Source: an uncultured Christensenellaceae bacterium (GTDB lineage: Bacteria > Bacillota > Clostridia > Christensenellales > UBA3700). Taken from it: 64,000 bases of DNA. This document shows, piece after piece, positions 7,603 through 43,050 of this stretch. The notes beneath the pieces are model-generated. The model saw only the letters and a list, made by a program, of their open reading frames with translations, was not told the DNA's origin and searched no databases. The translations under genes were made by a program, and so were the position numbers. The stretch spans positions 23,766 through 87,765 of the forward strand of contig CALWRI010000001.1 in the NCBI GenBank assembly GCA_944383905.1. The letters are read 5' to 3'. The stretch's first letter is position 1, and each line of letters begins with the position of its first letter.

Positions 7603-7654
7603 GCCGTTTTTGCTTGTCCCGCGCAGATATTACGTTTTGTTCGCATTCTCCCTC

Positions 7655-30566: not shown

Positions 30567-32462
30567 TTACATTTTAGGATATATTCGTTTTCGTCTCTCT
30601 CCTCCGTTGAGGTTATCCTCAAAAACGATCTGCATGGCGTCGAGCTCTCCCTGAACAACTCCTATCGACGGCAATGTGAAACGGTATCTGCGGGAGCGGT
30701 CCGAAGGATTTCTCAACATCAGGATATACTTGTCTCCGTTGCAAGCGAAGTAGCCGTAAACTTCTCCTCTTTCCGGTCTGCCGCCGAAGAAACGCGATCT
30801 CCCGAGAACGTCCGCATTCCTCTTTGCGAAACCGAGTTCTCTTTCCGCTGCCCGCCACTTTTCGTCCGTCATCATTTCGGGCGAAAAATACAGCTCCGCG
30901 AGACCGCTGCCGCGCATCATACAGCATTTCATATACAGAGAAAATTCTTCGTCCGTGTAGGTTATAGGCTTGTTTGCCTTCCTTGCGCTTTCGCTTGCAA
31001 AGTTTCTGGCGGCATAAGTGGGCTCGTGATTGTAAAGATGCGAAGCGGGAAACTGATACTGCCTTTTGACAAACAGATCGCGATATCTGCCGTCTCTGTA
31101 ATTCAGACATCTTTGCATATCTCCGCCCTTCCCCGCAAAGCCCATATCCGAAGCGTTGTTCATCCAGACGTAATCCGCCTGAATGAGAAACCACGGCGAG
31201 CAGTGGGCGTAAGAAGTCACGTTGAGGCAGACGTCGGGTCTGACTTTTCTGATCTTCGCAAAGCCTTGCATCCAATTTTTCCACAGCCTCGTATAAAACG
31301 CGAGCGCGTCTCCTTTCGCAGGCGCGTGTCCGTGGTCCTTTCCTCTGCAAGGCGCGTAGGCAAACCCGTCTATCTTGAAATAATCCACGTCGTACAGCGT
31401 GCAGAACCGTGCCATTCTCGAACAGAGCGCATCGATATAGCGCGGATCCGCCGTGCAGACGTCCCTCGACCTTTCGTTGACGTGATAACCGATGCCCGCG
31501 AGGAGTTTCGCGTATTCGTAAGTCTGCCTCGTATATCCTCCGCGAGGTCCGAACCATACCCCGAACTTTGAGCCGAGGCTTTTCGCGAGAGCGGATTCAT
31601 GCGAAAACCCTCCCGCGAATTTGTCGTTGAATTCCCAGAAAAGAGGCTTGTGGTATTCGGTCCAGCCGTCGTCCACGACGTAACAGTCGAGAGGAGGCAG
31701 TCCCGCCTTTTCCGCCCCCTGCGCGATCAGCGAAAACGATTTTTCTATCCTTTCGCGGGAAATGTCCAGCTTGTTGTCGTACCAGCTGTTGTACTGCACC
31801 CTGAACTTCGGTTTTCTCACGACTTTGAAAAGGTAGGTGAAAAAGCTCTCCCTGACGCTTTCGTAATCCGCCGCCGCGGCGGAGCCGACGATCGCGTCGG
31901 GAAGTGAAAGAGTGCACACTCCGTCTTCGCACGCGTCCGGTTCCCCGTCGTTGTGATACGTCAGACAGACTACTCCTCTCGCCGCGCCGTTGTCGCCCAC
32001 GGGACTCTCCAACCCGAAAAACATATCCGAAAGATAAACGGGCTGCCCGAGACGAGCGACCTTTGCGGGAACAAACGTGCGTCCGGCAAGCGGAGCCGAC
32101 CAGCAAAAAACGCCCTTGTCCGCGACCTCTTTTTCAACGCACACGTCAAGAACCGAGATGCCGACGGGATAACGAAGCGTGAGCTTCTTGCGCAATACTC
32201 CGTCTTTGTCCGAATAGCTCTCTGCGACTTCGAATTCTCCCAGCGTGAACGAGACACCGTCCGACGTCGCCCGCGCCTTGAAATCCGCGGCGCGGAGTTT
32301 TCGCACAAAACCGTTTCCTTGCGTATATACGAAGGAAAACTCTTCTTTCACTTTCACGGTTTTTCCCGTGATCGCGTTGACGTACCTCGCCGCGACGAAC
32401 CTGCCGTCTTCTATCCCGATCTCTTTTGCGACGCTCCCGCTTTCAAACCGCAGTTTTTCCAT
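30567..32462 (-). CDS. Glycoside hydrolase, clan GH-D-like (alpha-galactosidase/GH36-related)
   Basis: CYVVDDGW and YFKIDG motifs resemble the DDGW and K-x-D nucleophile motifs of GH27/GH36. Family assignment not verified. Confidence 0.5.
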   Translation of the reverse strand: MEKLRFESGSVAKEIGIEDGRFVAARYVNAITGKTVKVKEEFSFVYTQGNGFVRKLRAADFKARATSDGVSFTLGEFEVAESYSDKDGVLRKKLTLRYPVGISVLDVCVEKEVADKGVFCWSAPLAGRTFVPAKVARLGQPVYLSDMFFGLESPVGDNGAARGVVCLTYHNDGEPDACEDGVCTLSLPDAIVGSAAAADYESVRESFFTYLFKVVRKPKFRVQYNSWYDNKLDISRERIEKSFSLIAQGAEKAGLPPLDCYVVDDGWTEYHKPLFWEFNDKFAGGFSHESALAKSLGSKFGVWFGPRGGYTRQTYEYAKLLAGIGYHVNERSRDVCTADPRYIDALCSRMARFCTLYDVDYFKIDGFAYAPCRGKDHGHAPAKGDALAFYTRLWKNWMQGFAKIRKVRPDVCLNVTSYAHCSPWFLIQADYVWMNNASDMGFAGKGGDMQRCLNYRDGRYRDLFVKRQYQFPASHLYNHEPTYAARNFASESARKANKPITYTDEEFSLYMKCCMMRGSGLAELYFSPEMMTDEKWRAAERELGFAKRNADVLGRSRFFGGRPERGEVYGYFACNGDKYILMLRNPSDRSRRYRFTLPSIGVVQGELDAMQIVFEDNLNGGERRKRIYPKM

Positions 32463-32536: not shown

Positions 32537-32566
32537 ATAAAAAATGAAACGCCCCGAAGGGCGTCT
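32537..32566 (-). terminator. Intrinsic terminator ending the 7-gene ABC/ECF operon
   Basis: Minus strand: ACGCCC-uucg-GGGCGU followed by UUCAUUUUUUAU. Confidence 0.8.
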
Positions 32567-32581
32567 GTCCGAAGATCCGCG

Positions 32582-33997
32582 TCAATCGAATTTGCCGAAG
32601 AATTCGCGGGCAACCTCTTTGCCTCCCTGCTTTGCGATCCTGCCGTCCGCGACGACAACCGCCCTGTCGCACAAAGCGTCGGCGCAACGGACGTCGTGTG
32701 TCACCGTGATCACGGTGTTGCCCGTAACGGAGTGAAGTCTGTTTACGAGCCCGACAAGCCTTTCGAGATTTTCGTAGTCCTGCCCCACCGTCGGCTCGTC
32801 GAGTATGAGCACTTTTGGCGCAGTCGCGCATACGGCGGCAACGGTGACGAGTCTTTTTTGTCCTTCCGACAACGATTGAGGATGCCTGCCTGCAATTTTT
32901 TCAAGCCCGAAAAGCCGCATCACGGAACGGGCAAATACTTTGTCTTTCGCGCCGAAAAGTATCTCCTTTTCCACGGTAGGCATAAACAGTTGATAATTGG
33001 GATTCTGATATACGATCCCGACGCTCTCGAACCACCTCTTGCCGGCGCGTCTGCCGACCTTTGCGTCGATCCGTTGTTCCACGCTACCCGAAGTCGGCTT
33101 GTTCAGTCTCGCAAGCGTCCTGACGAGAGTAGTCTTTCCGCAACCGTTTTCCCCGAGCACGAGCAGTCTTTCTCCCTTGCGCACGTCGAGGTCGACTCCC
33201 GAAAGTATTTTCCTTCCCTCTGCCGAGAAGCTCACGTCCCGCATTTTGAGCAGGATTTCGTCGGAAAGGACGGGGGTACAGACGTCGGGTATGATTTTCG
33301 CGCGGTTTTTCGCGTACTCCTCCTTGTCCTCTATCTTTTGGATCCTTCCGCGGTGCATATGCCATATACTGTCGGCATAGCGCGCCACTTTGTCGACCCT
33401 GTGCTCTATGATCAGAACGGCATATCCTTCGGATTTCAGTTTCTTGAGTGCGATTGCAAGAAGTTCGGCGCCCTCTCCGTCGAGATTGGCGAGCGGTTCG
33501 TCGAGTATGATAATCTTTTGTCCCATCGCGAGTGTACACGCCGTGACAAGTCTTTGTTTCTGCCCTCCCGAGAGCGTACGCGTATGCCACTTGCCGCCGA
33601 GACTCATCCTTTCGCACGCCGTCTCTATGCTGCGCTTTATCCTCTCTCTCGTCATGCCGAGGTTTTCACAGCCGAACGCGATCTCGTCCTCTACCGTATC
33701 CTGAATTATCTGCGCGTCGGCGTTCTGCAGAACGACGCCCGCTTGGCGACATATTTCAGACATGGTCATTTTGCTTGCGTCCTCGCCGGCGACGTATACC
33801 TTGCCGGAGATCTCACCCGCGACGACGTGCGGGATTATGCCGCACACAACGGACATCAACGTGCTCTTTCCCGAACCGGAGCTGCCCGAAAGCAAAGCGA
33901 TCTCTCCGAAGCCGAGCTCGAAATCCACTCCGTCGAGAGCAAGCTCGTCGCTTGCGTCGTACTTGAAACAAAGATTTTGCGTCTTTACAGCATACAT
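32582..33997 (-). CDS. ECF-type transporter ATPase, fused double NBD (EcfA1-EcfA2/CbiO-like)
   Basis: Two Walker A sites (GSSGSGKST, GENGCGKTT), two signature motifs (LSGGQKQR, LSEGQKRL), two Walker B sites. Confidence 0.88.
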   Translation of the reverse strand: MYAVKTQNLCFKYDASDELALDGVDFELGFGEIALLSGSSGSGKSTLMSVVCGIIPHVVAGEISGKVYVAGEDASKMTMSEICRQAGVVLQNADAQIIQDTVEDEIAFGCENLGMTRERIKRSIETACERMSLGGKWHTRTLSGGQKQRLVTACTLAMGQKIIILDEPLANLDGEGAELLAIALKKLKSEGYAVLIIEHRVDKVARYADSIWHMHRGRIQKIEDKEEYAKNRAKIIPDVCTPVLSDEILLKMRDVSFSAEGRKILSGVDLDVRKGERLLVLGENGCGKTTLVRTLARLNKPTSGSVEQRIDAKVGRRAGKRWFESVGIVYQNPNYQLFMPTVEKEILFGAKDKVFARSVMRLFGLEKIAGRHPQSLSEGQKRLVTVAAVCATAPKVLILDEPTVGQDYENLERLVGLVNRLHSVTGNTVITVTHDVRCADALCDRAVVVADGRIAKQGGKEVAREFFGKFD

Positions 33998-34668
33998 ACA
34001 ACCACCGCCGTCACCGATCCCGCCGCGAGAAGAAGCGCGAACGCGGCGTCTCTCAAACGGAATTTTATTTCTTTGTATACGGTATAATTTTTATCGCTCG
34101 CGTCAAACCCCCTCGTCTCAACGCTCAACGCGAGAGTGTCGGAGATGTTGACGAGCCTTACCACGAGAGGGACGAGAAACGCCCTGTGAAAGATCCTCGG
34201 ATCCAACGCGTTGCCCGCTCCTCGCGTTCTCATCGCCTCGCGCACCCTTGCAGTCTCTTTTTTGAGCAAAGGAAAAAATCCCAGAGCTATCATCATGCCG
34301 AGAGTGATCATTCTCGGAGCGCGTAATCCCGAAAGATTCCTGACCGCCAGCACGGGCTCGAGCGCAAGCCCGGGTATGACCGCGACCGAGACTGCAAGTA
34401 TCCTGTTCGCCGCCGCGAAAGTCGCAGCGGTGTCATTCGAAAGCGCATAGGTCACACCGCAGAACAAAGCGCTCATTATCGCCGCAAAAGGTATCACGGC
34501 AAGACAGCAGCGCCAATATCCGAACACGAGAAGAAGAAGCCAGACTCCTGCGACGTACGCGGCAGACACGACCGTCTTTGCCGTCACGAGCCCCGTGACG
34601 AGCACGATCACGCTCGCTATTATGCTCAAAAGCGGATAGACCGGATTTTTAGCCTTGACTGAAGTCAT
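33985..34668 (-). CDS. ECF transporter transmembrane (T) component, EcfT/CbiQ family
   Basis: Multi-TM with REAMRTRG and SVETRGF coupling-helix motifs. Start set at the ATG at 34668 (the upstream extension is Arg-rich out-of-context sequence). Confidence 0.8.
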   Translation of the reverse strand: MTSVKAKNPVYPLLSIIASVIVLVTGLVTAKTVVSAAYVAGVWLLLLVFGYWRCCLAVIPFAAIMSALFCGVTYALSNDTAATFAAANRILAVSVAVIPGLALEPVLAVRNLSGLRAPRMITLGMMIALGFFPLLKKETARVREAMRTRGAGNALDPRIFHRAFLVPLVVRLVNISDTLALSVETRGFDASDKNYTVYKEIKFRLRDAAFALLLAAGSVTAVVVCML

Positions 34669-35378
34669 TTTTTGAGCACCCCCGCTTTTTTGAGTTCTTT
34701 GGCGATTTTCAGCCCGACGAGCGTCCCGACCACGGCGACCGCACAGACCGCCGCAGTCATTCCTACCGCCGCCCACGGCGCGTTTTCCGCAACCGCCGTC
34801 ATTCCCACGTCGTTGATTATCTTGTTATAAACGTAATTGAAAGGAAGCGAGAGCGGATTGTACAATGCGACCGCAAAGAATACCGCTTTGTCCGACTTGT
34901 AGCCTCTGAATATGACCAGCACCAGAACTTCGAGTAAAAGCCCGACTATAAGGTTGTTGATAAACATTGCGGGAGACATAAACAGTTGTATCACACCCGT
35001 AAAAAGCGCAACGAGCAACATACAGCCCGCCTTTCTGACCTTTGCCACGGCAATGGCAGGAAACACGGCAAGCTGCAATCCCGTAACGAGTTGAGCTATG
35101 CCGAACACTGTCGTGAGGAGCGGCACGACAAGCATCATGACCGAACAAGTCAGCAGCGTGATCGCGGACATGACCGCGAGAAAAACGACGTCCTTTATCT
35201 TGTACGCCTCGAATATCCCGCGTTTCTTACAGACGGCGGACTCCTCTTTTTCATACGCGTCGTCAGTCTTTGTCAAAGCAGCGTCGTCTCCGATTTTTTT
35301 CCTGCCCGTGTCCGTCATCTCGCTTTTATCTTCTCCGTAATGTTCCCCGAGAAACTCTTTCTTTTCTTCTTCGGTCAT
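34665..35378 (-). CDS. Putative ECF S component (MptD/Trep_Strep-like hydrophobic protein) with acidic N-terminal extension
   Basis: About 185-aa, 6-TM hydrophobic core ending in the basic tail KIAKELKKAGVLKK. ATGA overlap with the upstream ABC gene. RBS GGAGGTG. Sits directly upstream of ecfT and ecfA. Confidence 0.55.
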   Translation of the reverse strand: MTEEEKKEFLGEHYGEDKSEMTDTGRKKIGDDAALTKTDDAYEKEESAVCKKRGIFEAYKIKDVVFLAVMSAITLLTCSVMMLVVPLLTTVFGIAQLVTGLQLAVFPAIAVAKVRKAGCMLLVALFTGVIQLFMSPAMFINNLIVGLLLEVLVLVIFRGYKSDKAVFFAVALYNPLSLPFNYVYNKIINDVGMTAVAENAPWAAVGMTAAVCAVAVVGTLVGLKIAKELKKAGVLKK

Positions 35379-37063
35379 CTTTTCACCTCCGTTATTCTGC
35401 CTTTTTCTATCCTGTACACTCTGTCGGCGACAGCCATCGTGGACTCTCTGTGCGAAACGAGAATTATCGCCTTGTCCTTTTTCTGTTCCGCAAGCGACTT
35501 GAGGATAATGCCTTCGTTTATGCTGTCCACGTTGCTCGTAGGCTCGTCGAGGAGTATAAGCCCGCTGCCGCGCAGAAATGCTCTCGCAAGCCCGATCCTC
35601 TGTTTTTCTCCTGCGCTCAGATTGTCTCCGAGAGCGCCCGCCTTCGTCTTGTAACCGTCCGGCGTATCGACTATGAAATCGTGGACGGAAGCCTGCCTGC
35701 AAGCCTTGACGATCTCCTCCTCGGTCGCGTCCTCTTTTGCTATTTTCAGATTTTCCTCTATCGTCTCGTCAAAAAGGTATGTGGTCTGACTGACCATCGT
35801 CACGTTGCCAAGAAGACTGTCCGAATTTATCTCGTCGATGTCTTTGCCCGAATACAGTATCTTTCCGCCGTCCTTGCTCCAGAACCTCATAAGAAGTTTG
35901 AGAAGCGTGGATTTTCCGCAGCCGCTTTCCCCGACTATACCGACGATCTCCCCTCGTTTTGCCGTCATGCAGATGTCTTCGAGGACTTTATTCCCGTCCT
36001 CGTAACCGAAAGACAGATCCTCGACCCGCAGATCGTCGAAGTTGAAATCGACTCCGTTTTCCACTCTTTCCACGACGGGTTTTTCTTTGAGCAACGCGAG
36101 CACTCTGTCGCCGCTCGCAAAAGTCTGCGTAAGGTTTCCGGGAAGCGCGGAGATGGCTATCACGGGACCGAAGCTGCCGAATATCGCGACGACGCCTATC
36201 ACCGCCTTGCCTATCGTGATCTCTCCCGCCGCCGTAAGCGCGATCGCGACCGCCGTCGCAACAAGCGTCATAAGCGAAACGGTAAACTCGGTCGTCGCCG
36301 TCGCTCCCGCGATCTTGTTTTTGAGGTCGCGCGTATAGAGAAGCAGCTCGTCCGATCTTTCGTTGACCTCTTTTCTCCTCGCGTCGCCGGCGTTGTTGAG
36401 AACTATATCCTTTATTCCTTTTATGCTGTCGAGAAAATAAGCATTGAACGCCGCGAAACACCCGCGGTACCTGACGCCGCTGTCCTTCATCACAGAAGAA
36501 GACAGAAGCGGAGCCACGATACCCACCGCAACAAAGCCTGCGAGCGCGACGAGCGAAAGATACCAGCTTGACGTCAATCCGACGAAGACGAACACCGCCG
36601 TCGAAACCGTCAACGCAATACACACGGGCGAAACCGTATGCGCATAAAATACCTCGAGCGTCTCGATATCCGACGTAAGCATTGCGATTATACTGCCCTT
36701 CTTCTTGCCTTCGAGTTTCGCGGGACACAGTCTGCGAAGCGCGGAGAATATCTTGTCGCGCAAAACCGCGAGAAGTCTGAAAGCTATATAATGATTGCAA
36801 TACTGCTCGACGAAACGCAACGCGCCGCGCAGCACTCCGAGACCTATCGCAAGTCCCGCGATCCAGCCGTAAGACAGCGCGATCTGCTCTCCGAGCGCCT
36901 TCGCCACTCCTGCCGCGCCGAGCACCGTGACCCCCATAGAGCAGACGAACCCGAGACTGCCGTTTATCACCGCAAACGCCATGACATACGCAAGCGAGCC
37001 GAGCAACAGTATCAGACTCGCCATTATTTTGCCGCCGCTCATTCTGCTTTTGACTCTTTTCAT
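35375..37063 (-). CDS. ABC exporter, fused permease/ATPase (CydC-like half of a heterodimer)
   Basis: N-terminal 6-TM domain. Walker A GESGCGKST, signature LSAGEKQR, Walker B LILLDEPTS. Confidence 0.85.
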   Translation of the reverse strand: MKRVKSRMSGGKIMASLILLLGSLAYVMAFAVINGSLGFVCSMGVTVLGAAGVAKALGEQIALSYGWIAGLAIGLGVLRGALRFVEQYCNHYIAFRLLAVLRDKIFSALRRLCPAKLEGKKKGSIIAMLTSDIETLEVFYAHTVSPVCIALTVSTAVFVFVGLTSSWYLSLVALAGFVAVGIVAPLLSSSVMKDSGVRYRGCFAAFNAYFLDSIKGIKDIVLNNAGDARRKEVNERSDELLLYTRDLKNKIAGATATTEFTVSLMTLVATAVAIALTAAGEITIGKAVIGVVAIFGSFGPVIAISALPGNLTQTFASGDRVLALLKEKPVVERVENGVDFNFDDLRVEDLSFGYEDGNKVLEDICMTAKRGEIVGIVGESGCGKSTLLKLLMRFWSKDGGKILYSGKDIDEINSDSLLGNVTMVSQTTYLFDETIEENLKIAKEDATEEEIVKACRQASVHDFIVDTPDGYKTKAGALGDNLSAGEKQRIGLARAFLRGSGLILLDEPTSNVDSINEGIILKSLAEQKKDKAIILVSHRESTMAVADRVYRIEKGRITEVKR

Positions 37064-38796
37064 CTTGCGCCTCCTTCGGCGTATTCGAGATAGCCGCGTT
37101 CGAGACTTTTCTGCGTTTTGTAAAGCGCTGCATACTCTCCGTCTTTAGCGCAAAGTTCTCCGTGGTCGCCGCATTCCGCCACTCTGCCGTCTTTGAGATA
37201 ATATATCCTGTCCGCTCCCGTCACGTTTTCCAACCTGTGAGAGATGACGACGACTATCGCCCTTTCCGAAAGAGCGCGGACGTTTTGCATTATTATCGCT
37301 TCGCTGTCCGCATCGATATTCGATGTCGCCTCGTCAAAGACGTAAATATCTTTGTCCGCAACGAGATTCACCGCCAGAGCAAGCCTCTGCTTCTGACCGC
37401 CGGATATGTTGCCGGCGTCTTCGGTGACTATCTTGTCGAGTCCTCCGTTTTCAAGGATAAAGCGTTTGAGATTGACCTTTGCGAGAGCCTCGTATATCTC
37501 GTCGTCGGTAGCGTCTTTCTTTGCGAGAAGGAAATTGTCCCTGACGCTTTCGTTGAATATGTATGTGTTGTAACTCACCACCGCGAGGCGGGAATAATAA
37601 CTCTCTCTGCTAAACGACGAAAAATCCTTTTCTCCGACGGTAACTCTGCCCTTCTTGGGACGAAGCGCGCCCGTTACGAGACCGACAACGGTCGACTTTC
37701 CGCTCCCGCTCTCCCCGACTATCGCCGTAATTCCTTTGCCGAAAGTCATGTTCACGTCTTTGAGCACGTCCCTGTTGCCGTCGTATGAAAAGTATACGCC
37801 TGCAAGCCTCACATCGCCCTCTCCGACCTCGCCTTCCCCCCATTCGGGAGGCTTTGCGTCGAGAAGCGCTTTGATTTTTTTGCCCGCGCTCGCTCCGTTC
37901 ATCGCAACGTGGAACGCGCTGCCGAGAGCCCTCAACGGGAGGAAAAACTCAACCGCAACCAGCACGAGGAAAAGCGCTTCAAAAGGAGACATCCTCCCCT
38001 GTACCGTTCCCGTGACCGCAAGCGCTATGCCTGCACCCGCCCCTCCGAAAGCAACGAGGTCCATTATCGTCGTGCTCGCAAGCTGCATCACGAGCACTTT
38101 CATCGTGATTTTGCGGAATTCTTCCGCTTTTGCGTTCATTCTGTCGTGATAGCGGGCGTCCGCTCTGAATATCTTGAGCTCTTTGAGTCCCTGCACGCTG
38201 TCGAGAAATCCGTCTCCCATCGACGTATACTTGCTCCAATATTTTGCAAATATCCTCTTTGCGTACTTGCTGACCGCAACTATCGAAAGAGGTATCAGCG
38301 GAACGCAGGCGAGAAGCGCGAGCGATGTCTTCACATCGACGAACGCACCGATGACGAACAGTATCACGGGCGCAATCAGAGAAAAGAAAAACTGCGGGAG
38401 ATAGGTCGAATAGTAAAGATCGAGCTGTTCGATCCCTTCCATGCTCACCTGCGTAAGCCCTGCCATGCTCATCTCCTCGGTCGTGCGCACTCCCAACTCG
38501 ACGATCTTGTCGTAAGTGCGTTGCCTCAACTGCTTTTTCACCCTTGCTCCCAAGCTCGCCTTTATCCTGCTCGCCGCTATGCCCGCGGGCACGCGCAACG
38601 CGACTCCTGCAACGGCGAGAATGCCGGGGAGAACGTATCCTTTCGCTTCCGCGCCGCTTGCGGCAAGCGATAACAGCACGCATACGCATGCCGTTATGCC
38701 GACATTGAGAAGCATTGCGACAACCGTTATCGCAACTGCCGCCGCAACGTATTTCCCGCTTCCCTTTGCAAGTCTGAACAAATCTTTATCCAACAT
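37060..38796 (-). CDS. ABC exporter, fused permease/ATPase (CydD-like half of a heterodimer)
   Basis: N-terminal 6-TM domain. Walker A GESGSGKST, signature ISGGQKQR, Walker B IYVFDEATS. 4-nt overlap with its partner. Confidence 0.85.
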   Translation of the reverse strand: MLDKDLFRLAKGSGKYVAAAVAITVVAMLLNVGITACVCVLLSLAASGAEAKGYVLPGILAVAGVALRVPAGIAASRIKASLGARVKKQLRQRTYDKIVELGVRTTEEMSMAGLTQVSMEGIEQLDLYYSTYLPQFFFSLIAPVILFVIGAFVDVKTSLALLACVPLIPLSIVAVSKYAKRIFAKYWSKYTSMGDGFLDSVQGLKELKIFRADARYHDRMNAKAEEFRKITMKVLVMQLASTTIMDLVAFGGAGAGIALAVTGTVQGRMSPFEALFLVLVAVEFFLPLRALGSAFHVAMNGASAGKKIKALLDAKPPEWGEGEVGEGDVRLAGVYFSYDGNRDVLKDVNMTFGKGITAIVGESGSGKSTVVGLVTGALRPKKGRVTVGEKDFSSFSRESYYSRLAVVSYNTYIFNESVRDNFLLAKKDATDDEIYEALAKVNLKRFILENGGLDKIVTEDAGNISGGQKQRLALAVNLVADKDIYVFDEATSNIDADSEAIIMQNVRALSERAIVVVISHRLENVTGADRIYYLKDGRVAECGDHGELCAKDGEYAALYKTQKSLERGYLEYAEGGAR

Positions 38797-38818
38797 CTTA
38801 TCTGCCTTCTTCCTGCTG

Positions 38819-39310
38819 TCAGCCGACCAATCTGGCTTTTTGCAAGTCTGCCTTTACCGTAAATTCAACGGTCTTGTTCATCAACCTGACGACGCAACGC
38901 AAACCTACGCTTTGCCCGATCCCGTCGCGGGAGATCGCAAAAGTGTAACCCTGAAGATCTCCTTCGTCCGACTCCTTTCCTTTTACATATCCTTCTTCCT
39001 GTGCCATCTCGACGGACCCGAGCATCCCGTTTTTACATAAAAACGTAAACTCGTAATCATTTCCTTCTTTGCTTATCCTGACATAATCGGCACAATTTGC
39101 CCCGATCATGCTCTCTCCCATCGCGGACGTGCCGCCGATCTCGTAAGGAAGCTCGAAAACCCCGCTTTCCTGCGAATCCACGTCGTATATTTCGCCGAAA
39201 TATCTGCCGTATTCGTCCTGTCCCGTATATTCGGTCTTATCTTCGCCGCACGCGGTAAGCACCGCCGCGCAAACAATGACGGTCAATACTGCGATCAATA
39301 CTTTCTTCAT
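38819..39310 (-). CDS. Lipoprotein, unknown function (163 aa)
   Basis: Signal peptide with lipobox (MKKVLIAVLTVIVCAAVLTAC-GEDK). Strong RBS AGGAGG at the internal ATG at 39310. Confidence 0.75.
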   Translation of the reverse strand: MKKVLIAVLTVIVCAAVLTACGEDKTEYTGQDEYGRYFGEIYDVDSQESGVFELPYEIGGTSAMGESMIGANCADYVRISKEGNDYEFTFLCKNGMLGSVEMAQEEGYVKGKESDEGDLQGYTFAISRDGIGQSVGLRCVVRLMNKTVEFTVKADLQKARLVG

Positions 39311-39335
39311 TCCGCTTCCTCCTTTGAAACCGCAT

Positions 39336-39674
39336 TTATTTTCTTTTTCCGTTTGCTTTTGCTTCACGCCTTTTTAGCGCCATCGTCTCGAAGACGTGCG
39401 CCCATGCGACGCGAGGAGAATAAAACATCATTCTCGGACCCGAAAAGCGCATGACTTCCTTTATCCTTTCCTTCATTGCGGGCTTGTAACAATGTATCCT
39501 GCAATTGGAACAAAACGGTTTGTCGTCGCCGAAAGGACACTTCTTCCTCCTCTCTTCGACGTATCTGCAAAGTTCTTCGCAATCTTTGCAAAGCTCTCCC
39601 TTTTTCGAACCGTGCTTTTTGCGGCAATAAAGCCCGATCATAAGTTTTACCGTTTTCAGATCGTCCTTCTGCAT
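39336..39674 (-). CDS. Nitrous oxide-stimulated promoter (YgbA_NO) family Cys-rich protein
   Basis: Pattern LYCRKKHG...LCxxCxxL..Y...R...CPFG..KP.C..C.IHCYKP, typical of YgbA-like proteins. Confidence 0.7.
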   Translation of the reverse strand: MQKDDLKTVKLMIGLYCRKKHGSKKGELCKDCEELCRYVEERRKKCPFGDDKPFCSNCRIHCYKPAMKERIKEVMRFSGPRMMFYSPRVAWAHVFETMALKRREAKANGKRK

Positions 39675-39688
39675 ATTCCGCTCCTTTA

Positions 39689-39704
39689 GTTAGCAGCCGC
39701 TAAC
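39689..39704. promoter_or_regulatory. Perfect 16-bp palindrome GTTAGC-N4-GCTAAC, copy 1
   Basis: GTTAGCAGCCGCTAAC, 2 nt upstream of the SD sequence of the YgbA-like gene. Confidence 0.5.
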
Positions 39705-39825
39705 CGCATAGGATAAAATAACGCGCCTTTGAGGCGCAAGTCGCGGTGCGTATAGTCAACGAACGCCCGCTTTTGCCTTTTTCTTCGCAAATAATTGTAT
39801 CACACCGCTTATTGTTCTTCATTGT

Positions 39826-39841
39826 GTTAGCATAGGCTAAC
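39826..39841. promoter_or_regulatory. Perfect 16-bp palindrome GTTAGC-N4-GCTAAC, copy 2
   Basis: GTTAGCATAGGCTAAC, 137 bp from copy 1, about 27 bp upstream of a possible extended -10 box (TGATACAAT, minus strand, 39794..39802). Confidence 0.5.
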
Positions 39842-40041: not shown

Positions 40042-42093
40042 ATGCAGGAAAAATACAAACCTCTGTTTACGCCGTGGAAAATACGCGACGTCGAGATCAA
40101 AAACCGCATAGTGCTCTGCCCTATGGGCGGCACGTCGCTGTTCGGTTGGATGGAACCGAATCATTTTGACAAAGTTGCGGCGGATTTCTTTATGGAAAGG
40201 GCGAAACACGACGTGGGGCTCATCATTCCCGGCATAGCTCCGCTCAAAGATACGATCGGCGGCAGATGGCTGTACAAGAATAAAAGGATGTTCCGTCAGC
40301 TCAAGGAGTATATGACCGAATTCCACAAGACCGGCGCAAAGATGTTCATCCAGCTTACCGCGGGCTTCGGCAGATCATTCGCGATAACGGACATGCTCGT
40401 GCCCATGCTTAAAAACAAGGTGCTCGGAGCGCTGGCAAAACCCTTTGTCGATATAAGCTATATCTGCGCTTCGCCGAGCGAGCTTCCCTCCCGCTGGGCG
40501 GAGGACGTGACCTGCCGCGCTCTTACCAAAAAGGAGATCGAGGATATGATCTTCGCGTTTGCAGAGACCGCGAGGCTGTGCAAAGAAGCGGGAGTCGACG
40601 GAGTTGAAGTGCACGCCGTGCACGAGGGGTATCTGCTCGATCAGTTCACTCTGCCGTACACGAACAAGCGCACGGACGAATACGGCGGCAGCTTTGAAAA
40701 CCGCTACCGTTTCCCCGTCGAAGTGGTAAAAGCGATAAAACAGGCTTGCGGAGAAAATTATCCCGTTTCTCTGCGCTACTCGGTTTTGAGCAAGACAAAA
40801 GATTTCTGCGTCGGCGCAATGCCCGGCGAAGTGTACGACGAGATTGGCAGAGATATGGCGGAAAGCGAACGCGCCGCCAAATATCTCCAGGACGCGGGCT
40901 ACGATATGCTCAATGCGGACAACGGCACCTACGACGCGTGGTATTGGGCGCACCCGCCTGCTTATATGCCGAAAAACTGCAACCTCGACGACGTCGCGCA
41001 TATCAAAAAATTCGTCGACATCCCCGTGGTATGCGCGGGAAGAATGGAACCGGATACCGCCGCGGAAGCGATATCCGAAGGCAGGATAGACGCAATGGGC
41101 GTCGCACGGCAATTCCTCGCGGACGGAGAATGGGTCACAAAACTCAAAGACGACCGTCTCGACGACATACGTCCTTGCATTTGCTGCCACAACGCCTGTT
41201 TCGCAATGGCGCATTACAAGGGCGTCGCAAACGACGAGACGTTCGACGACGCTTCTCACATGGCGAGATGCGCGCTCAATCCGCAGACGATGCAGGGGCA
41301 CAAATACGACATAATCCCCGCAAAGAAGCAAAAGACCGTCGCGGTTATCGGCGGAGGCATCGGCGGTATGGAGACCGCGAGAATCGCAACGCTCCGCGGA
41401 CATAAAGTAACGATATACGAAAAGAGCGACAAGCTCGGCGGCGTATTCGTCGCCGCAGCGGCTCCCGCCTTCAAGGAAAAGGACAAGGCTCTGATAAAGT
41501 GGTACACAAAACAGATCAACGATCTGAATATCCCCGTCAGATTCAACTGCGAGATAAAAGACGTCAACGCCCTCGAAGAAGACGAGGTCGTCGTCGCAAC
41601 TGGCGCGGTCGCACGCAAGATGAACATAAAAGGCATCGAACGCGCGATCGAAGCGGTCGAATATCTGAACGGCGCGCAAGTCGGCAACGACGTGGTCGTG
41701 ATAGGCGGCGGACTGACGGGTTGCGAGATCGCCTACGATCTGTTCCTCAAAGGCAAAAACCCGTCTATCGTCGAAATGAAGAACGACCTTATCGCCGTGC
41801 GCGGGGTTTGTCTTGCAAACTCCTCTTACCTGCGCGACTTCTTCAGATATGAGAAAGTCCCCGTGTACCTCGAAAGCAAGGTCGGGGAGATTTCCGCAAA
41901 CAGCGTGACCGTCATCGGCGCGGACGGCAAAAAGACGGAGATAAAAGCGGACGACGTGATCGTCTCGGTAGGTTATACTCCTGCGCCCGTCGCGGCGGAC
42001 GGCAAGCGCGTTTCCGTCGTCGGAGACGCGGACAAAGTCGGCAACCTACGCACCGTGATCTGGCGCGCGTGGGACGTGGCTTTGTCTCTTTGA
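40042..42093 (+). CDS. NADH:flavin oxidoreductase, OYE-like FMN domain fused to FAD/NAD(P)-binding domain (2,4-dienoyl-CoA reductase / enoate reductase family)
   Basis: N-terminal OYE TIM-barrel motifs (IKNRIVLCPMGG, HAVHEGYLLDQF). Cys cluster CxxCxxxC region (CICCHNAC). Rossmann fold GGGIGGME. Start at the ATG after AAGGAGGA. Confidence 0.85.
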   Translation: MQEKYKPLFTPWKIRDVEIKNRIVLCPMGGTSLFGWMEPNHFDKVAADFFMERAKHDVGLIIPGIAPLKDTIGGRWLYKNKRMFRQLKEYMTEFHKTGAKMFIQLTAGFGRSFAITDMLVPMLKNKVLGALAKPFVDISYICASPSELPSRWAEDVTCRALTKKEIEDMIFAFAETARLCKEAGVDGVEVHAVHEGYLLDQFTLPYTNKRTDEYGGSFENRYRFPVEVVKAIKQACGENYPVSLRYSVLSKTKDFCVGAMPGEVYDEIGRDMAESERAAKYLQDAGYDMLNADNGTYDAWYWAHPPAYMPKNCNLDDVAHIKKFVDIPVVCAGRMEPDTAAEAISEGRIDAMGVARQFLADGEWVTKLKDDRLDDIRPCICCHNACFAMAHYKGVANDETFDDASHMARCALNPQTMQGHKYDIIPAKKQKTVAVIGGGIGGMETARIATLRGHKVTIYEKSDKLGGVFVAAAAPAFKEKDKALIKWYTKQINDLNIPVRFNCEIKDVNALEEDEVVVATGAVARKMNIKGIERAIEAVEYLNGAQVGNDVVVIGGGLTGCEIAYDLFLKGKNPSIVEMKNDLIAVRGVCLANSSYLRDFFRYEKVPVYLESKVGEISANSVTVIGADGKKTEIKADDVIVSVGYTPAPVAADGKRVSVVGDADKVGNLRTVIWRAWDVALSL

Positions 42094-42223: not shown

Positions 42224-42451
42224 TTACTGTTTGCTTTCGATGTACTTCACGACGTCTCCGACCGTCTTGAAAGTAAGCACGACGTCTTCTTCTATCTCAA
42301 TGCCGAATTCCTCTTCCGCCGCCATCACGAGTTCTACCGTATCGAGCGAATCAGCCTTGAGATCTTCCTGCAATCTGGTTTCCGCATTTATACCGTCCGC
42401 AGACACGCCCATCTGTTTGGCAATGATTTCCTTTACTTTTTCGAGTACCAT
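42224..42451 (-). CDS. acpP: Acyl carrier protein
   Basis: 75 aa with the DLKADSLDTVELVMAAEEEFGIEI motif (phosphopantetheine Ser in DSLD). RBS GGAGGT. Confidence 0.93.
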   Translation of the reverse strand: MVLEKVKEIIAKQMGVSADGINAETRLQEDLKADSLDTVELVMAAEEEFGIEIEEDVVLTFKTVGDVVKYIESKQ

Positions 42452-42621: not shown

Positions 42622-43050
42622 CTAAACGCACGAGACGAAGACGCTCGCGTCGCCTCCCGCCACGGCGATCGTGTAACCTTTCAGGAATGTATGAAATGTT
42701 ACGCCGTCGGAAAAATCTCCGCCTTCTCTGACTTCGGAAAGTCTGATTCCGTCGCCGCGCAACTTGCATTTCGCCTCGTATGCCGTCCAGTTTATGATGT
42801 CTTTCATAGGCGCGGGCACTTCTCTGTCCGACCTTTCAACGTCTATTCCCACGGGAGAGGAAGCCAGTGCAAGCACGGCAACGTCGTCCGTATGCGCGAC
42901 GGAAACGCGGTAATTCTCGCAATAGGGCGCCCCGCTCTCCTTCTTTTTCAGTTCTCCGATCAACGGTTTTCCCGTTGCAGACAGCACTTTGTCCGCGCGC
43001 TTCGCAAGCTCCAGAGTTCCCGATCCGTCAAACGAAAGAAAAATCAGCAT
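42622..43050 (-). CDS. 4'-phosphopantetheinyl transferase, short Sfp-like form (142 aa)
   Basis: Ordered motifs GKP (27-29), VAHT (51-54), GIDVE (68-72) and WTAYEAKCKLRGDG (88-101). Only the last 142 codons of the 330-codon ORF look like protein. The start overlaps the malQ stop by 7 nt. Confidence 0.7.
   Translation of the reverse strand: MLIFLSFDGSGTLELAKRADKVLSATGKPLIGELKKKESGAPYCENYRVSVAHTDDVAVLALASSPVGIDVERSDREVPAPMKDIINWTAYEAKCKLRGDGIRLSEVREGGDFSDGVTFHTFLKGYTIAVAGGDASVFVSCV

Follow-up and report, generated by a model that had tools for sequence, protein, structure and literature searches.

A Christensenellaceae operon joining a YgbA protein, a CydDC-like transporter pair and an ECF importer: a candidate iron-repressed haem-acquisition system

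Introduction

Energy-coupling factor (ECF) importers for haem have been described in Staphylococcus lugdunensis (LhaSTA, PMC7299338), in Lactobacillus sakei and in Streptococcus pyogenes (SiaFGH, as cited in PMC12671055), and the published haem S components show little sequence similarity to one another (PMC7299338). Among fused ATP-binding cassette (ABC) half-transporters, Escherichia coli CydDC has the invariant CydC H85 and CydD H312 as the ligands of its haem iron, with CydD Y311 stacking on the porphyrin and CydC R81 and R136 binding the propionates (PMC10374445); a link to haem uptake has been reported for CydCD of Enterococcus faecalis (PMC11282960). On the regulatory side, EqbA of Streptococcus equi is a short DtxR-like repressor without an SH3-like domain, and its proposed operator, a 36-bp palindrome (AACTATTATTGTTAGATGTATCTAACAATAATAGTT), was taken from a gel-shift fragment rather than a footprint (PMC3672683). 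Here we analyze an operon of seven minus-strand genes at positions 32582-39674 of a 64-kb window (the whole stretch of DNA analysed, from contig CALWRI010000001.1 of an uncultured Christensenellaceae bacterium), in which a YgbA_NO family protein and a lipoprotein are encoded together with a CydDC-like ABC pair and a complete ECF module.

The reading we favour, with a probability of roughly 0.55, is that this operon is an iron-repressed haem-acquisition system or, put more cautiously, a system for an iron chelate with its metal bound to protein side chains while it is transported. The parts are of known kinds. What is new is the combination: YgbA and a His/His CydDC-like core under an EqbA-type box, with an MptD-type ECF module as an option and, in Christensenellaceae, a NEAT-like lipoprotein. 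In the full-text literature that we searched, these family names appear in only six papers, no function is assigned to them, and the combination is not described.

Results

The ABC transporter pair

For comparison with the window operon, we scanned with an S-component profile, keeping one genome per species, and collected 75 related loci, whose open reading frames (ORFs) were classed by their best match to the seven window proteins. The third and fourth genes of the operon encode a CydD-like ABC half-transporter with a transmembrane and an ATPase domain (37060-38796, minus strand, 578 aa) and a CydC-like half-transporter (35375-37063, minus strand, 562 aa), for which TIGR02857 and TIGR02868, respectively, are the best NCBIfam models. 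Full-length searches of PDB structures were dominated by the ATPase domains and uninformative, so the transmembrane domains alone were used as queries. Against solved structures, the CydD-like domain scored 67 bits with CydD, 30 with MsbA and 29 with IrtA, and the CydC-like domain scored 45 with CydD, 40 with CydC, 39.5 with Sav1866 and 37 with YbtPQ. The label "CydDC-like" of the initial annotation survives this stricter comparison; its "exporter pair" holds as a description of the fold, not of the direction of transport. We considered and rejected a pair of the YbtPQ or IrtAB type, given that CydD and CydC lead the transmembrane-only searches and IrtA and YbtPQ score clearly lower.

The residues that hold haem iron in CydDC are retained. 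In pairwise alignments, with high posterior probability, H91 of the CydC-like protein aligns with H85 of E. coli CydC, and F295-H296 of the CydD-like protein with Y311-H312 of E. coli CydD. H91 was invariant in the CydC-like homologues from related loci (60/60), as was F295-H296 in the CydD-like homologues (53/53). The same signature, PLRxxGSAFHxAMNG together with EQYxNH(Y/F)IAF, was found in every YgbA-linked pair lacking ECF genes. An unrelated ABC exporter encoded within one related locus (L066) does not have the His/His signature, and a second unrelated exporter (L038) has histidine at the two CydC positions only. With the propionate-binding arginines replaced (see Discussion), the invariant H91 and H296 place the pair, by alignment, in a distinct CydDC-like clade, in which a two-histidine site is kept where CydDC holds the haem iron and the propionate surroundings are altered.

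The lipoprotein

The second gene (38819-39310, minus strand) encodes a 163-aa protein with the lipobox LTAC and Cys21 as its lipidation site. The family is small, with four homologues among 5.8 billion proteins and one remote homologue, in locus L091, that we found by its context. An AlphaFold model built from five sequences reached a mean predicted local distance difference test score (pLDDT) of 83, and ~92 over the mature domain. The initial annotation had proposed structure prediction for this protein, and the predicted fold is NEAT-like: a NEAT beta-sandwich with a helix after the first strand. When the model was compared with the PDB using Foldseek, the top 50 matches were all NEAT domains or the NEAT-like Shp, most of them solved with haem bound. 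The best match was IsdX2-NEAT5 (E 1.5e-5, target-normalised TM score 0.76; best matches 0.70-0.76), and the set comprised IsdX2, IsdX1, Hbp2, Shp, IsdA, IsdC, IsdH and IsdB, all from Gram-positive haem or haemoglobin capture systems. The L091 homologue (177 aa) occupies the same operon position, is 29% identical to the window protein (E 2e-18) and matches Pfam NEAT over the whole model (E 1.1e-5).

Methionines are conserved at three positions, M64 and M68 in the helix after the first strand and M144 just before the last strand, and all are also methionine in L091. Shp ligates haem through two methionines. M64 or M68 together with M144 are candidate haem ligands, in a site that would resemble that of Shp, which we offer as a lead. 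The lipoprotein is thus a candidate surface haem binder with a predicted NEAT-like fold.

The operator and its putative repressor

Two exact copies of the palindrome GTTAGC-N4-GCTAAC lie upstream of the operon on the minus strand, a distal one at 39826..39841 and a proximal one at 39689..39704, where 0.09 would be expected by chance. The proximal box ends directly 5´ of the ribosome-binding site AAAGGAG, 14 nt 5´ of the ygbA start codon. Both boxes were invariant in an alignment of eight Christensenellaceae leaders in which most other positions vary. The looser core GTTAG-N6-CTAAC also precedes homologous operons in Clostridia, Mollicutes and spirochaetes; of 66 loci, 30 had a perfect copy in the 300 nt before the first gene of the operon, compared with 0.007 per 300 nt elsewhere in those loci. 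Operons with YgbA and the ABC pair but no ECF genes are preceded by perfect boxes as well, three in L082 and two in L090.

The core of the window boxes, TGTTAG-N6-CTAACA, is the core of the proposed EqbA operator (PMC3672683). By clustering of flanking ORFs, we found a small regulator (~125 aa) adjoining the operon in eight related loci. All eight were nearer to EqbA, for which the query was the sequence printed in the supplement of the equibactin paper (PMC3672683), than to MntR, DtxR or TroR (30-41% identity to EqbA, E 1e-16 to 1e-25), and for the three representatives tested, from L018, L058 and L057, both Pfam models of iron-dependent repressors gave passing scores. The repressor genes of L057 and L062 are immediately preceded by a box that departs from GTTAGC-N4-GCTAAC at two positions. 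Beyond these eight loci, L086 carries a 124-aa gene that is weakly DtxR-like (E 6e-5 to DtxR, under the Pfam cut-off). From these comparative data, we infer repression of the operon by a metal-dependent repressor of the EqbA type, encoded outside the window, for which the metal sensed is most likely iron.

Three loci (L018, L058 and L072) use the variant box GTTCGC-N4-GCGAAC instead, with further copies downstream of the operon. In two of them, L018 and L058, an EqbA-like regulator is encoded beside the operon (53% identity between the two), which points to joint variation of operator and repressor; the variant box may mark a switch in operator-repressor specificity. In L090, a perfect GTTAG-N6-CTAAC (7614-7629) was also seen just upstream of a gene at 7650 for a 122-aa heavy-metal-associated (HMA) domain protein, which hints at a regulon reaching beyond the transporter.

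The leader contains two further elements, both on the minus strand. The extended -10-like element TGATACAAT (39794..39802), ~20 nt downstream of the distal box, was read from the sequence and corresponds to a conserved block, T(G/A)TGATA(A/T)TAT, in aligned related leaders; it is a candidate promoter element. Between the two boxes, and a few bases upstream of the proximal one, a terminator scan detected a terminator-like GC hairpin followed by TTATTTTAT (39712..39738). A GC-rich hairpin abutting the conserved TTATTTTAT block was present in seven of the eight related Christensenellaceae leaders, with differing loops and partly differing stems, which suggests a conserved attenuator or terminator or, alternatively, the -10 region of a second promoter. 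The leader had been annotated as a single upstream regulatory region, and so it is, with two conserved operator-like palindromes and a conserved terminator-like hairpin inside it.

Two other modes of control were considered for the leader and rejected. A riboswitch or known leader RNA found no support, as Rfam at gathering thresholds returned only a tRNA at 995-1082, and a conserved aptamer is unlikely because the leader between the boxes varies in length and sequence between relatives. Nitric oxide-type control through an NsrR or HcpR-like operator was set aside given that the co-located regulators belong to the DtxR family; the box spacing is also not the one usual for NsrR or CRP/FNR-type sites.

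Conservation of the gene set

Three arrangements predominated among the 75 loci. The order pair - YgbA - S - T - fused ATPase was found in 16 loci, YgbA - pair - S - T - fused ATPase in 15, and the full seven-gene order of the window, YgbA - lipoprotein - pair - S - T - fused ATPase, in 11, representing 11 species-level genomes; the six-gene core without the lipoprotein was found in ~31 species-level genomes beyond these 11. The remaining loci hold fewer of the genes, in some cases because the contig ends there. The ECF module and the ABC pair occur together in ~50 loci. The related loci come from Christensenellaceae, Oscillospiraceae, Ruminococcus, Lachnospiraceae, Acholeplasmatales and other Mollicutes, Treponema and Sphaerochaeta. 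The arrangement of this gene set is not due to chance. The co-occurrence of MptD-family S components, CydDC-like pairs and YgbA, which the initial annotation had named as a check on its reading, is strongly conserved in this sample.

YgbA adjoined a His/His ABC pair in all seven YgbA homologues sampled, five of which had no ECF genes nearby. The tightest association is therefore that of YgbA with the ABC pair; ECF genes often join the two, and the lipoprotein is restricted to one lineage. In the plasmid search, the S component was not matched on plasmids.

Some additional features of the related loci were recorded. A 271-aa protein on a 1.9-kb metagenome contig (P0110), truncated at its C-terminus, joins a YgbA domain to an S component; this fusion is probably a frameshift or assembly artefact, and we took it as evidence of YgbA/S adjacency only. 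A small DUF454 (YbaN-like) membrane protein accompanies YgbA and the ABC pair in three of the five ECF-less operons (L082 7308-7724, L089 10720-11124 and L090 5750-6172). In six loci (L022, L025, L029, L036, L043 and L072), genes for a FecB-type binding protein and for a FecCD-type permease lie no more than 5 kb from the operon. FecB/FecCD-type ABC importers are the class that serves iron-siderophores, haem and B12.

YgbA

The first gene (39336-39674, minus strand) encodes a protein of 112 aa (pI 9.8) that matches PF11756 with 131.5 bits (gathering score 25) and NF007714 with 125.6 bits (cut-off 88). In an alignment of 36 homologues, C17, H21, C29, C32, C46, C55, C58, H61 and C62 were invariant; these residues could form two metal sites or one Fe-S site. 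The structural model was mostly helical with moderate confidence, and had no significant structural neighbour in a PDB fold search. The ygbA gene of E. coli and other enterobacteria belongs to the NsrR nitric-oxide regulon. The "nitrous oxide" of the family name reflects this enterobacterial regulation, not a known activity. Calling the protein NO-associated, as had been done for the window, was thus a matter of name only: here its gene is preceded by an iron-type operator, and no other gene is linked as closely to the ABC pair.

The ECF module

The last three genes encode the S component (34665-35378, 237 aa), EcfT (33985-34668, 227 aa) and a fused EcfA-EcfA' ATPase (32582-33997, 471 aa), all on the minus strand. 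The S component is probably a divergent MptD/Trep_Strep member. It passes PF09605 Trep_Strep marginally (29.9 bits, gathering score 28.7) and falls far below TIGR02185 MptD (26.8 bits, cut-off 76.45), so the earlier family assignment is upheld by Pfam, by a narrow margin, and not by NCBIfam. Sixteen relatives all match the Trep_Strep/MptD model (best E-value 5e-12), and relatives with 55-60% identity are labelled "MptD family" by NCBI. The hydrophobic core of ~185 aa and the basic C-terminal tail noted before were recovered, the core at residues 55-237 and the tail as KELKKxGVxKK, conserved in the alignment. The N-terminal extension, previously described as acidic and 50 aa long, is net acidic; it measures ~55 aa and is of mixed charge (16 D/E vs 11 K/R). 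Besides the Christensenellaceae clade, a few others have this extension (residues 1-55); its length and sequence are variable, and most of the 187-aa relatives lack it. The S family is small, with 231 representatives at 50% identity among 1.84 billion proteins, and searches toward streptococcal and mycobacterial relatives returned only "MptD family" names from metagenome-assembled genomes.

EcfT matches PF02361 CbiQ with 41.6 bits (gathering score 25); its gene always follows that of the S component, and the S-T-A order is kept in related loci. The fused ATPase contains two ABC_tran domains, scores 251.9 bits with the cbiO subfamily model TIGR01166 (cut-off 211.8) and 301-309 bits with the ECF_ATPase equivalog models, just under their cut-offs of 315-330.

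Transcription unit and flanking genes

The ORF listing and independent gene calls on identical metagenome contigs agree on seven tightly packed genes in the same direction, as initially annotated; the closest genomes to the window are uncultured Christensenellaceae. In order, the junctions measure +25, +22, -4, -4, -4 and -13 nt. The three -4 nt junctions are ATGA overlaps, where two had been counted before; the 13-nt overlap was counted correctly. The ECF module and the ABC pair are translationally coupled through ATGA overlaps. The terminator placed at 32537..32566 (minus strand) was found again by the terminator scan as an intrinsic-terminator-like hairpin (stem 32566-32547) with a T run behind it, beyond the last stop codon.

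Directly downstream of this terminator lies a 631-aa ORF (30567-32462, minus strand) with no Pfam family, whose position is conserved in Christensenellaceae loci. On the other side, divergent from the operon, a gene at 40042-42093 (plus strand) encodes a 683-aa Oxidored_FMN and Pyr_redox_2 flavoprotein of the enoate or dienoyl-CoA reductase type. It shares the intergenic region with the distal box, and at least six Christensenellaceae loci (L007-L011, L013) have it in this divergent position. Further upstream, a 75-aa PP-binding carrier protein (42224-42451, minus strand) adjoins a 142-aa ORF without a family match (42622-43050, minus strand), and the two are conserved in six Christensenellaceae loci. 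From the pattern ITHTDG...VGVDIE...W..YEA..K in the L007 orthologue, the 142-aa ORF looks like a phosphopantetheinyl transferase. No link of these two genes to a nonribosomal peptide synthetase (NRPS) was found, and no NRPS is encoded nearby.

Discussion

A model for haem acquisition

An iron-type repressor and operator, a NEAT-like surface protein and the ligand histidines of a CydDC-like pair together point to the acquisition of iron, specifically of haem or of an iron chelate coordinated by protein. That the operon serves iron acquisition in some form, the frame shared by the haem and metallophore readings, we regard as quite likely. The initial annotation held that the substrate could not be inferred from sequence; haem is now the leading candidate because of the NEAT-like fold of the lipoprotein and the invariant haem-ligand histidines. 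That the substrate is haem, in which direction the ABC pair transports, how cargo passes from part to part and what YgbA does are all inferred from the comparisons above.

Under the haem-acquisition model, an EqbA-type DtxR-family repressor would bind both GTTAG-N6-CTAAC boxes when iron is plentiful and keep the operon off; upon iron limitation, the seven genes would be transcribed together. The lipoprotein, anchored at the external face of the membrane, would capture haem, probably through conserved methionines instead of the usual tyrosine, and pass it on. The ECF transporter (MptD-type S component, T component and fused A-A' ATPase) would import haem, and the CydDC-like heterodimer would move the same cargo between the membrane and one side by a trap-and-flip movement like that of CydDC. 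On the cytoplasmic side, YgbA, carrying a metal or an Fe-S cluster, would serve as an acceptor, as a chaperone or in the release of iron.

A more far-reaching proposal concerns YgbA itself, and we advance it tentatively, as doubtful. CydDC-type haem transporters could have in YgbA a dedicated partner in the cytoplasm, a Cys/His protein with a metal or Fe-S site, which exchanges haem with their His/His site and may take part in O2-free iron extraction. YgbA and the His/His core, with the ECF module and NEAT-like lipoprotein optional, would then form a widespread, undescribed route for haem iron in strictly anaerobic gut Clostridia, Mollicutes and spirochaetes.

Several observations weigh against haem acquisition. 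The pair fails the equivalog models for CydD (TIGR02857, 370 bits vs a cut-off of 435) and CydC (TIGR02868, 296 bits vs 329), and the propionate arginines R81 and R136 are replaced by Q87 and H142, both invariant (60/60). The lipoprotein has no family match in the Pfam and NCBIfam libraries and none to PF05031 NEAT even at E <= 10, and a profile search of PDB sequences with it returned nothing; the L091 homologue scores 26.2 bits with Pfam NEAT, below the gathering score of 32.8. The canonical NEAT haem-ligand motif YxxxY is absent, the last strands reading LRCVVRLMNKTVEFTVK. The lipoprotein is also confined to a Christensenellaceae-like subset and so cannot define the substrate of the whole operon family. 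The S component has no invariant His, Tyr or Cys. No EqbA-like gene lies within the 64-kb window, so the repressor must be encoded elsewhere in the host genome. EqbH-L, SiaD-H and LhaS are likened to the window proteins by gene architecture only, not by sequence. Finally, in S. equi, deletion of eqbHIJ abolished NRPS-dependent, not haem-based, 55Fe uptake (PMC3672683).

Alternative explanations

This last result belongs to the strongest competitor, which we consider possible, if on balance unlikely: uptake and recycling of a metallophore from other bacteria, of the equibactin, yersiniabactin or pyochelin type. The ECF transporter would then import the iron-loaded chelator, YgbA would aid metal release, and the ABC pair would either import, as do YbtPQ and IrtAB, or expel the chelator once emptied; the two invariant histidines would supply the ligands still missing around the iron of a chelate that leaves its metal unsaturated. 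The same module, a membrane protein, an ECF T component, an ATPase and two fused ABC half-transporters, stands under EqbA in the equibactin cluster (PMC3672683), and the window boxes have the same core as the operator proposed for EqbA. Modules of a similar kind are found with yersiniabactin-like NRPS clusters of C. difficile RT023, an equibactin-like cluster of S. lugdunensis comes with its dedicated ECF transporter, and in Mycobacterium avium subsp. paratuberculosis the mpt genes adjoin a siderophore cluster, with mptABC zinc-responsive (PMC4298942). The FecB/FecCD-type importers near six related loci fit as well. The metal or metallophore theme of the initial annotation is to this extent borne out, the operator and linked regulators being of the iron-responsive EqbA/DtxR type and the ECF and ABC-pair module recurring in the equibactin cluster. 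However, the transmembrane domains of the ABC pair are nearer to CydDC than to YbtPQ or IrtAB, its invariant residues exactly match the CydDC haem ligands, and the sole dedicated extracellular protein has a predicted fold known only from haem capture; equibactin itself was never chemically detected (PMC3672683). NRPS or other chelator biosynthesis genes are missing from the window neighbourhood, and no NRPS-like protein was found among the ORFs of at least 900 aa in the related loci. A cycle in which a chelator is secreted and recaptured, as initially suggested, is unlikely as stated because neither the window nor the 75 related loci hold biosynthetic genes for one.

Rather than handling cargo, YgbA might be a small zinc-finger-type regulator or sensor that tunes the expression or activity of the transporter. 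It is small and very basic (pI 9.8), its CHCC and CCC(H/C) residue patterns resemble zinc-binding modules, its mostly helical model matched no known fold, and its gene is often the first of the operon. We nevertheless regard this role as improbable. The conserved operator is accounted for by EqbA-like repressors that co-occur with YgbA in the same loci, Pfam and NCBIfam scans detected no helix-turn-helix or other DNA-binding domain, and YgbA is invariably beside the ABC pair, not beside promoters.

Least probable of all is that the pair is a true CydDC-type exporter of haem or a thiol reductant, for extracytoplasmic haem-protein maturation or for redox or nitric oxide defence, with YgbA as a stress-linked partner and an ECF module that imports an unrelated micronutrient and merely shares the promoter, since the CydDC-like transmembrane domains and ligand histidines, the place of E. 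coli ygbA in the NsrR regulon and the five of seven sampled contexts with YgbA and the pair but no ECF module are set against an iron-repressor-type operator that better suits acquisition and also precedes the ECF-less operons (three perfect boxes in L082, two in L090), the lack of cytochrome bd genes near the operon, the coupling of the ECF and pair genes through ATGA overlaps with joint occurrence in ~50 loci, and a NEAT-like lipoprotein that implies capture from outside.

Implications

If haem acquisition is the function, transporters of the CydDC fold could serve haem uptake, which bears on the question of whether they do so in Enterococcus. The operon would also give a role in one pathway to YgbA_NO proteins, MptD/Trep_Strep S components and the orphan CydDC-like pairs of bacteria without cytochrome bd, and YgbA as a haem partner would explain why enterobacterial ygbA is in the NsrR regulon. 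To our knowledge, Gram-positive haem capture has been studied almost solely in pathogens; the system would reveal a means by which health-associated strict anaerobes, Christensenellaceae among them, compete for gut haem iron. The conserved EqbA-type box is in addition a handle for mapping the iron regulon across Clostridia, Mollicutes and spirochaetes.

Comparison with known systems

The equibactin locus on ICESe2 of S. equi resembles the window operon in regulation and in transport module: it has a short DtxR-family repressor without an SH3-like domain, to which proteins of the related loci are 30-41% identical, the operator core TGTTAG-N6-CTAACA, and EqbHIJ (membrane protein, ECF T component, ATPase) beside EqbKL, two fused ABC half-transporters (PMC3672683). 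Its role in iron accumulation is experimentally supported (PMC3672683). Unlike the equibactin locus, the window operon has no NRPS or polyketide synthase genes, places the ABC pair before the ECF module, and includes YgbA and a NEAT-like lipoprotein, neither of which is among eqbA-N.

The mptABCDEF genes of M. avium subsp. paratuberculosis likewise place ABC exporter-fold genes beside an MptD-type S component, a T component and an ATPase, and are regulated by metal starvation (PMC4298942). Control there is by zinc and Zur, in contrast to the EqbA-type box of the window; mptABC are described as IrtAB-like, in contrast to the CydDC-like pair, and YgbA and the lipoprotein are not reported there (PMC4298942). 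With the MptD model, the S component of the window scores no more than 26.8 bits.

With the Isd and LhaSTA systems of S. lugdunensis (PMC7299338) and the Shr-Shp-Sia/SiaFGH systems of S. pyogenes (cited in PMC12671055), the window operon shares iron-type regulation, a surface haem binder of the NEAT fold (here predicted) and an ECF importer. The binder in the window is a lipoprotein instead of a sortase-anchored protein, without detectable NEAT sequence similarity and without YxxxY. The hosts here are strictly anaerobic commensals, the repressor would be of the EqbA type, not Fur or MtsR, and YgbA is present. The sia operon of S. pyogenes also has two genes for fused ABC half-transporters, siaD and siaE, which lie between siaABC and siaFGH; it would then be built of the same three parts as the window operon.

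The closest likeness in the transmembrane domains is with E. coli CydDC, which is also a heterodimer of two fused half-transporters; the window pair has both axial haem-ligand histidines and an aromatic residue before the position of H312 (PMC10374445). It differs from CydDC in scoring under the NCBIfam cut-offs and in having invariant Gln and His at the positions of R81 and R136 (PMC10374445). It is also not linked to cytochrome bd genes, and instead stands under an iron-type operator, joined to YgbA and an ECF importer.

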